Shown: piece by piece, positions 35 through 336 of the stretch
Layout: each line of letters starts with the position of its first letter
Numbering within the stretch: the stretch's first letter is position 1
NCBI RefSeq assembly: GCF_003334385.1
Contig: NZ_QOWN01000198.1
DNA length: 336 nt
Reading direction: 5' to 3' (one strand)
Origin: Escherichia coli
Lineage (GTDB): Bacteria; Pseudomonadota; Gammaproteobacteria; Enterobacterales; Enterobacteriaceae
Position numbers and translations under genes: made by a program
The notes under the pieces: generated by a model
The model's input: the letters and a program-made list of their open reading frames with translations, nothing else
The model's database searches: none
Told to the model about the DNA's origin: nothing

Positions 35-63
35 ATGTCATGAATCCTCCCGGTCGGGATAAT
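35..63 (+). promoter_or_regulatory. Candidate sigma70-type promoter: -35 ATGTCA (35-40), 17-bp spacer, -10 GATAAT (58-63); predicted start near 70
   Basis: The hexamers match the TTGACA/TATAAT consensus at 4/6 and 5/6 with the optimal 17-bp spacing. This is a pattern match only; there is no experimental or comparative support. Confidence 0.25.
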
Positions 64-143
64 GTTGTGAGTCAGATGAGGGGCGGGCTGAAGTCCGGAA
101 GTTACAGGACAATGGCAGGAGGAAGACTACAGCCCGCAATACG

Positions 144-168
144 AAAAAGGCCGCGCAGTTGCGCAGCC
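144..168 (-). terminator. Minus-oriented intrinsic-terminator-like hairpin: GGCUGCGC-AACU-GCGCGGCC followed by UUUUU
   Basis: On the minus-strand RNA the stem (plus coordinates 168-161 pairing with 156-149) is 8 bp including one G-U wobble, with a 4-nt loop, followed directly by U5 (plus 148-144) and then CGUAUU. On the plus strand the same stem has a C/A mismatch and no U tract, so the orientation signal favours minus. Confidence 0.4.
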
Positions 169-195
169 TTATGAATTCTGGTTAAAATCCATTCG

Positions 196-201
196 ATTAT
201 A
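196..201 (-). promoter_or_regulatory. Perfect -10 hexamer TATAAT on the minus strand (plus sequence ATTATA); no convincing -35 or TG extension
   Basis: This is an exact consensus -10 in an AT-rich context, about 30 nt upstream (minus sense) of the minus-oriented terminator hairpin at 168-144. The -35 candidates (CAACAG or GCAACA) are poor. A chance TATAAT in an AT-rich window of this size is not unlikely. Confidence 0.2.
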
Positions 202-223
202 AAAATGTATATCTCATGCTGTT

Positions 224-250
224 GCCCGAACCCACTCGGGCTTTTTTTTT
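224..250 (+). terminator. Rho-independent (intrinsic) terminator, plus strand
   Basis: GCCCGA (224-229) pairs perfectly with TCGGGC (236-241), with a 6-nt loop ACCCAC, immediately followed by T9 (242-250). The upstream flank is not A-rich, so the signal is oriented for plus-strand transcripts. Confidence 0.85.
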
Positions 251-254
251 GCCC

Positions 255-280
255 ACAAGAAAGCCCCTCCGGAGAGGGGC
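255..280 (-). terminator. Probable intrinsic terminator for a minus-strand transcript entering from the right
   Basis: A perfect 7-bp GC-rich stem, GCCCCTC (263-269) with GAGGGGC (274-280), has a 4-nt loop. On the minus-strand RNA it is followed by UUUCUUGU (plus 262-255). On the plus strand it is followed by GGAGAGUGG with no U tract, so orientation favours minus. It sits about 12 nt downstream of a possible minus-strand stop codon (293-295). Confidence 0.45.
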
Positions 281-292
281 TGGAGAGTGGCG

Positions 293-336
293 CTATGTGC
301 CATTGCATGGTGCCGGGTGCCTCCCGGTGAGTTCAG
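293..336 (-). CDS. Possible 3' end of a minus-strand protein-coding gene (partial; C-terminus ...ELTGRHPAPCNGT, stop TAG = plus 295-293); product unknown
   Basis: This minus-strand frame is open from the window edge to a TAG whose reverse complement is CTA at 293-295, with the minus-oriented hairpin 12 nt downstream. Only 13 codons are visible and one is a rare AGG. The alternative frame with TGA at 333-335 is also possible. Very weak. Confidence 0.2.
   Translation of the reverse strand, partial: ELTGRHPAPCNGT

Follow-up and report, generated by a model that had tools for sequence, protein, structure and literature searches.

The nanS-p genes have the Shiga toxin genes as their immediate upstream neighbours and belong to a region rich in prophage sRNAs (STnc100/PasD, AsxR/AgvB and the EcOnc RNAs), and the esterases that they encode serve the growth of pathogenic E. 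coli on the O-acetylated sialic acids of mucin. Transcripts of nanS-p rise by 1-2.4 log upon mitomycin C induction (PMC10462455). The closest described systems come from the same region, where Tree et al. 2014 (PMC4104026) described a "convergent sRNA pair" at the moron site and mapped the 5' ends of AsxR-type RNAs as the primary starts of 51-60-nt RNAs; the STnc100-family sRNA is itself related to PasD (2026 Zhu/Storz preprint). In Table S2, the same authors (PMC4104026) reported three Hfq-CRAC peaks of E. coli O157 Sakai prophages, EcOnc08 and EcOnc21 (both in Sp4, Sakai minus strand) and EcOnc42 (Sp15), which are annotated as homologues and all lie on the strand antisense to the late genes; northern blots gave a band of ~271 nt for each. 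The function of EcOnc RNAs of this class is listed as unknown in reviews (PMC7873438). Our literature searches, which included the papers on this region, found no described element upstream of nanS-p. The stem-loop reported here thus appears to be undescribed, the overlapping EcOnc21 Hfq peak on the opposite strand being already published.

We analysed 336 nucleotides of E. coli DNA (the window), which correspond to the intergenic "moron" site that lambdoid prophages have downstream of their late promoter PR'. The sequence recurs at 100% identity in several E. coli chromosomes (the locus is carried, for example, by strain EC2, NZ_CP058571), many Stx-converting phages match it at ~87% identity, and E. 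coli genomes hold ~4,700 copies. The minus strand of the window is that of the late genes, and along it the source genome carries the Q antiterminator, a methyltransferase, two tRNAs, a TolA-like moron gene, the window itself, the esterase, a holin and a lysozyme; the annotated SASA-family carbohydrate esterase CDS (nanS-p) begins at window 41 on the minus strand, both in phage phi191 and in the window's own genome. Read in this direction, the window holds the 3' half of STnc100, an AsxR-like anti-sRNA (encoded on the plus strand), the terminator T2, a hairpin, the ribosome-binding site and nanS-p (Table 1). The hairpin (137->83, minus) lies on the sense strand between T2 and the nanS-p ribosome-binding site, 9 nt downstream of the T2 U-tract and 41 nt upstream of the start codon. 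The AsxR/AgvB genes (RF02703, RF02702) are its immediate neighbours on the plus strand and belong with it to one conserved "moron-site" module of lambdoid prophages; ~57 nt separate the hairpin from the Rfam model as well as from the mapped primary 5' ends.

Table 1. Features of the 336-nt window; arrows give positions in minus-strand reading order.
Feature	Position	Strand	Remarks
Sigma-70-like promoter match ATGTCA-17-GATAAT	35..63	+	Points into the hairpin; consensus match only; possible antisense start
nanS-p translation start region	39..59	-	Mini-hairpin UCCC (59->56)/GGGA (51->48), Shine-Dalgarno (SD) GGGAGGA (51->45), ATG (41->39)
Closing helix P1, 3' arm	83..90	-	CAGCCCGC; columns 122-129 of alignment A1; 96.4% of cells paired, 4 pairs doubly changed
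Outer second helix P2, 3' arm GGACU	92..96	-	GGAC alternatively pairs with GUCC at 110->107 (inner helix)
Pyrimidine-rich hairpin interior	97..123	-	Variable in length and sequence; UCCUCC (123->118) complementary to nanS-p SD
Outer second helix P2, 5' arm AGUCU	124..128	-	Stacked on P1 across a U-U mismatch; in minimum-energy fold and RNAalifold consensus
Closing helix P1, 5' arm	130..137	-	GCGGGCUG; G-U wobbles kept on the minus strand only (27 cells vs 5)
Intrinsic terminator T2	138..170	-	Stem 170->147, then U-rich tail; from terminator scan; adjoins the hairpin upstream
AsxR-type anti-sRNA gene	194..246	+	Rfam RF02703, 63 bits (equal to gathering score), E = 8e-10, full length; terminator 224-241
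STnc100-family sRNA, 3' part with terminator	251..336	-	Rfam RF02076, 70.9 bits, E = 2e-15; cut by the window edge

An earlier note on this DNA had drawn attention to an 8-bp closing helix around 39 nt, and this helix is present exactly as claimed: GCGGGCTG (83-90) is the exact reverse complement of CAGCCCGC (130-137), and a repeat search extends the arms to 13 nt (83-95 and 125-137), of which 12/13 are complementary. A perfect 8-mer inverted repeat with a loop of up to 60 nt occurs in 18% of dinucleotide shuffles of the window, so that the 8-bp match by itself is weak evidence. The case for the hairpin rests instead on fold stability and, above all, on conservation with covariation among the homologues. 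Folding of the 55-nt segment gives -20.6 kcal/mol (z = -3.6) for the plus strand and -21.4 kcal/mol (z = -4.4) for the minus strand, and in neither case did any of 200 shuffles equal it. The second helix of the minimum-energy fold, AGUC(U)/(G)GACU, pairs 92-96 with 124-128 and stacks on the closing helix. The same note had placed another helix inside the hairpin, GTCC (93-96) with GGAC (107-110); these segments can indeed pair, but the minimum-energy fold does without them, folds with the inner helix being 1.5-2.5 kcal/mol worse than those with the outer one (-17.4 vs -18.9 kcal/mol on the plus strand, -17.7 vs -20.2 kcal/mol on the minus strand). The outer and inner pairings are mutually exclusive, and a permissive search found a partner for each in most homologues (32 and 33 of 35 haplotypes). 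The inner alternative takes a different form from one structural type to another (see below for the types): GUCC/GGAC in type A, CUUC/GGAG in C, UCCC/GGGA in D and GUCU/AGAC in E.

Homologous leaders were gathered from ~200 related loci of viral contigs, with the NanS-p N-terminus and the conserved ribosome-binding-site sequence as queries, and yielded a comparison set of 56 distinct leaders (alignment A1) with 35 hairpin haplotypes in five structural types. Type A comprises the window and the Sakai prophages Sp4 and Sp5, type B is found for example in L049 and Sp17, type C in L018 and L025, type D in L024 and type E in L103 (L numbers denote loci of our set). The RNAalifold consensus of the 56 leaders recovers P1 and the outer P2. 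Across the 13 pairs of these two helices, standard pairing is found in 94.9% of 728 cells, against 25-50% when the partners are slid by 1-3 columns; P2 taken by itself is paired in 92.5% of cells and has 2 pairs with double changes. Altogether six pairs are doubly changed (e.g. G-C to A-U or U-A, C-G to U-A, U-A to G-C), a number that 0/500 shuffles reach and that has to be read with the make-up of the sample in mind, since the homologues are close relatives within Escherichia prophages, the five types represent few independent lineages and recombination between prophages complicates the count of events. The covariation in orthologues that the earlier note had put forward as a check is present: compensatory and wobble changes maintain the pairing of the sense strand, and the pairing is retained among types whose whole hairpin, arms included, measures 39-56 nt. 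Searched with a covariance model of the hairpins, 100 phage loci (860 kb) yielded exactly one copy apiece, and each phage record likewise has one.

Could the repeat be a feature of the DNA, i.e. a protein-bound or recombination-related inverted repeat, or else a functionless palindrome that arose by chance and is carried along with the leader? The frequency of such repeats in shuffled windows would allow it, and sRNA modules and nanS-p alleles meet here in a mosaic joint. However, the variable spacing of the arms, with pairing kept throughout, is a poor fit to a DNA site of fixed spacing, and neither the six doubly changed pairs nor the strand-specific bias of the wobble pairs (see below) would be expected from a DNA site or from chance. 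We consider both of these origins very improbable.

The distribution of the element appears narrow. In a scan of one genome per bacterial species with the ribosome-binding-site pattern, essentially none was found outside Escherichia: the matches were one Escherichia genome, one 888-bp "Xanthomonas" contig and one chance match, and brought no extra diversity. The "Xanthomonas" contig (NZ_JPLE01000080.1, 'Xanthomonas pisi', locus L204) has a nanS-p leader of the E. coli kind, which over the stretch examined agrees with the Sp5-like type A sequence, and it may be E. coli contamination of the assembly. Other nanS-p alleles (e.g. those of L043 and L056) have unrelated leaders without the hairpin, which shows that the hairpin is not required for nanS-p expression.

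Which strand carries the structure can be read from the wobble pairs (G-U or U-G) of the homologues and from their folds. (i), cells that pair solely on the minus strand outnumber those that pair solely on the plus strand in P1 (27 vs 5) as well as in P2 (68 vs 1), for a total of 95 vs 6. (ii), the bias persists when distinct wobble states are counted, with 7 vs 2 within type A and 9 vs 1 in the other types. (iii), when the haplotypes are folded one by one, the minus-strand hairpin is stable in 5/5 types and the plus-strand hairpin is as stable as its counterpart in types A and B only, collapsing in types C, D and E (e.g. -18.3 kcal/mol on the minus strand vs -2.5 on the plus strand, or -21.1 vs -5.8 kcal/mol). 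The wobble bias and the folding of the individual types indicate that selection for pairing acts on the nanS-p sense RNA. The stem-loop is thus real, conserved among E. coli prophages and best preserved on the nanS-p sense strand.

The strand is of consequence for the reading under which the hairpin first attracted attention, namely that a plus-strand RNA offers GGA motifs in its loops to a protein of the CsrA/RsmA family. The motifs are where they had been reported on the plus strand (97-99, 107-109, 118-120 and 121-123), so that 83-137 contains four GGA, one of them in the loop of the inner hairpin, and GGA near or in loops is what the window shares with the CsrB/CsrC sponges and with CsrA-bound leader hairpins. 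The likeness ends there. On the plus strand the 35 haplotypes have anywhere between 0 and 4 GGA, with none in type E, and the minus strand has just 0-1; the pairing is conserved on the opposite strand; and the single loop GGA depends on the suboptimal inner helix. Moreover, Rfam gave no match to a CsrA-sponge family at E <= 1, and the literature search gave no paper naming CsrA together with nanS-p. Several GGA motifs, presented in hairpin loops and conserved among orthologues, are what a CsrA-binding RNA would show, and this locus does not display them. CsrA binding can hence be set aside as extremely improbable. The fold of 70-250 on the plus strand, another check that the earlier note had named, gives z = -2.2 against shuffles.

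Several other identities were considered for 83-137. Rfam at E <= 1 returned no credible family over this segment; a match to Leu_leader (82-174, 21.9 bits for a gathering score of 50) reflects a generic resemblance to a hairpin followed by a terminator. The Rfam matches of the neighbouring sRNAs do not extend to the hairpin: that of the AsxR/AgvB family, whose 51-62-nt RNAs join a variable seed at the 5' end to a conserved 3' part with a terminator, is confined to 194-246, the hairpin lying upstream of the putative anti-sRNA promoter, and that of STnc100 (RF02076) to 251-336. The hairpin shares a GC-rich stem on the late strand with the intrinsic terminators T1 (STnc100) and T2 (147-170), but it is not called by the terminator scan, its interior measures 39 nt and the sequence after its stem, CCCUCAUCUG on the minus strand and AAUACGAAAAA on the plus strand, is in neither case a U-tract. 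Two open reading frames run across it, 40-174 (+, 44 aa) and 102-308 (-, 68 aa), and were judged not credible because the lengths of the types differ by 6, 7, 10 and 16 nt, which breaks any frame; the minus-strand frame also crosses two sRNA terminators. Finally, the presence of one copy per phage record and per locus speaks against a mobile or repeated element.

We thus propose, with somewhat better than even confidence, that in the 5' leader of the prophage late gene nanS-p, which encodes a sialate O-acetylesterase of the SASA family, the hairpin acts in cis as an RNA stem-loop that would insulate or stabilise the message. Since it lies downstream of T2, it should be made mainly when Q-antiterminated late transcription passes the upstream terminators; the promoter scan of the window found no minus-strand promoter that would set the hairpin at a primary 5' end. 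The RNA would then fold into an 8-bp closing helix, a second helix of 4-5 bp and a variable pyrimidine-rich interior, a self-contained module of the leader that would keep an anti-SD-like pyrimidine tract from pairing with the strong SD of nanS-p. The hairpin might also provide the nanS-p/lysis mRNA with a protected, structured 5' boundary after processing in the AU-rich UUUUUCGUAUU upstream.

The idea of insulation takes up, in altered form, a remark of the earlier note that GGAGGA resembles an SD or anti-SD sequence: it is the minus-strand complement UCCUCC that matches the nanS-p SD GGGAGGA (51->45), and without the closing helix the two pair in silico. In all types, the sense hairpin has an interior rich in pyrimidines. 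When P1 was forbidden, the predicted probability of an unpaired SD fell from 0.22 to 0.02 in the window, and among the other leaders of types A and C from 0.27 to 0.10, from 0.29 to 0.11 and from 0.38 to 0.13; types B and E lacked this effect and type D showed little of it, all values coming from a folding model that cannot represent pairing between a loop and the outside. These predictions, mixed as they are among types, hint at insulation of the SD by the hairpin. The SD is in any case predicted to be unpaired with a probability of just 0.2-0.4 in all types. The mini-hairpin at 48-59 (-), UCCC-GACC-GGGA, which occupies the first four bases of the SD, is part of the RNAalifold consensus, its sequence having belonged to the pattern with which the homologues were collected, so that its invariance cannot be judged.

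A stabilising role would bring the hairpin close to the ompA 5' stem-loop, the type of leader-stabilising element that acts at the extreme 5' end of its transcript. Like the ompA-type leader stem-loops, the hairpin is stable and autonomous, lies in the leader upstream of and apart from the ribosome-binding site, and is free in sequence as long as pairing is kept. It differs from them in its place in the transcript, being internal to a long late transcript unless this is processed.

Processing itself, as opposed to insulation, is the close alternative on the same strand. The minus-strand hairpin would then be a site for RNase III or a site associated with RNase E, which would separate the upstream sRNA and terminator region from the nanS-p/lysis mRNA or, as in the sib retroregulation of lambda, cause transcripts that have read through to be degraded. 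In type A, P1 and the outer P2 form a quasi-continuous stem of 13-14 bp, and in type B a perfect stem of 12-13 bp; the AU-rich, single-stranded UUUUUCGUAUU (148->138) lies directly 5' of P1, and the hairpin is transcribed only through T2 read-through, as such a function would have it. However, typical RNase III substrates have ~20 bp, more than the stem offers here, and types C, D and E have weak stems with many G-U pairs. We therefore regard a processing signal as distinctly unlikely, and keep to the insulating or stabilising leader element as the preferred reading.

The plus strand deserves separate consideration, in view of the Hfq peaks mapped in sibling prophages. The functional RNA could be an antisense RNA of the EcOnc08/21/42 class, long enough to start near or inside the 5' end of nanS-p, cross the ribosome-binding site and the hairpin in antisense and end at the anti-sRNA terminator; the hairpin would be its structural and Hfq-binding module, and the interior, which is purine-rich when viewed on the plus strand (AGG AGG AAG at 117-125), would offer A-R-N triplets to the distal face of Hfq. 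It resembles the A-R-N repeats that Tree et al. (PMC4104026) linked to Hfq binding. The EcOnc RNAs have the position that this explanation calls for, since they run antisense to the leader of nanS-p, in the interval bounded by the start of this gene and the anti-sRNA terminator, with the convergent sRNA pair on one side and nanS-p on the other, and the hairpin of Sp4 is of type A like that of the window. On NC_002695.2, EcOnc21 covers the antisense strand of T2 and of most of the hairpin homologue (717-802 of the Sp4 locus L205, with the P1 arms at 763-770 and 810-817), and EcOnc42 spans, in antisense, the opening ~78 nt of nanS-p. The plus strand has a promoter-like ATGYCA-17-GATAAT, conserved wherever the hairpin-type leader occurs and absent from other leader types; it is found in Sakai Sp4 (L205 865-837) and Sp15 (L207 509-537) as in the window, and overlaps the nanS-p start codon and SD in antisense. 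In type A, the window included, the plus-strand hairpin is as stable as the minus-strand one, and the larger segment 70-250 folds on the plus strand with the z of -2.2 given above.

Against this stand the wobble pairs and the folding of the individual types, which show that the pairing is maintained on the other strand and that the plus-strand hairpin is lost in types C, D and E: the EcOnc21/08/42 RNAs read antisense to nanS-p, i.e. along the plus strand of the window, whereas the conservation of the hairpin favours the nanS-p sense strand. Moreover, the window has the AsxR-type 3' module, whose mapped primary transcripts have only 51-60 nt, the long transcript being documented just for a sibling type of module; the 3' module of Sp4 and Sp15 is indeed a different variant from that of the window. 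The longest run of A-R-N triplets is just 1-3 among the haplotypes, and the predicted promoter would yield an RNA of ~180-195 nt, not 271 nt. A plus-strand antisense RNA as the functional molecule is thus possible, if on balance doubtful. It is compatible with the leader element and may act alongside it. The suggestion of the earlier note that the hairpin could be a protein-binding module of an sRNA fares accordingly: the hairpin is outside the mapped AsxR-type sRNA, but its plus-strand equivalent in Sakai Sp4 lies under the EcOnc21 peak, which makes such a module a live rival, with Hfq and not CsrA as the candidate protein.

The DNA of the window may in fact be selected on both strands, the opposite strand being transcribed in sibling prophages. 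One may go further and speculate that the two constraints are connected: an antisense RNA of the EcOnc21/42 class would need a purine-rich tract for Hfq, the complement of this tract on the nanS-p mRNA would be an anti-SD-like pyrimidine tract, and the sense hairpin would be an evolved lock or switch, holding the pyrimidine tract away from the SD. Translation of nanS-p in lysogens would be turned off once the antisense RNA or Hfq opened the hairpin, and late transcripts would fold it co-transcriptionally and be translated. We rate this scheme as rather unlikely; the sense-strand leader element remains our preferred reading.

If the hairpin modulates the translation of nanS-p or the stability of its mRNA, or if it contacts the EcOnc21/42 antisense RNA, it would add a post-transcriptional layer to the control of a colonisation factor and would provide the first functional handle on an Hfq-bound EcOnc RNA of unknown role. 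If it is merely a structural element of the leader, the analysis has corrected the strand and removed a false CsrA lead.

Some observations concern the leader and its neighbours more broadly. The sequence CACAACA, the consensus target of the GcvB R1 seed (Tree et al., PMC4104026), occurs at 69->63 (-), ~20 nt ahead of the nanS-p ATG, and has not been kept by every type; anti-GcvB sRNAs (AgvB) are encoded beside nanS-p in sibling prophages. A targeting of the leader by GcvB was nevertheless rejected, the predicted duplex with the R1 region of K-12 GcvB being no better than that of shuffled leaders (fraction 0.13).

In Sakai Sp17, the Hfq peak EcOnc06 (an RNA of ~177 nt; 450-512 of locus L208, homologous to ~175-235 of the window, -) maps to the late (sense) strand, where it is antisense to AgvB2 and immediately precedes the T2 homologue. 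Its position suggests that T2 is a real 3' end and that a sense RNA with the GcvB-like UUGUUGUGUUGUU tract is made there. On the plus strand, T2 (147-170, -) holds the likely -35 box of the anti-sRNA, TTGCGC at 159-164, followed by a -10 box TAAAAT at 183-188 and a start near 194, so that late read-through transcription would cross the anti-sRNA promoter. The core TGCGCAA-G is invariant in 56/56 leaders, with two intervening bases that vary in the Sp4-type, and it is kept even where the T2 stem has decayed (types C and D).

At the far end of the anti-sRNA gene, its terminator (224-241) stands back to back with that of STnc100 (262-281). The variable 5' seed of the anti-sRNA reads CGAUUAUAAAAAUGUAUAUCUC in the window vs CGAUUAUUAAAACGAGUAUCUC in AsxR, and judging from this difference the window's anti-sRNA may have a target other than the FnrS terminator loop.
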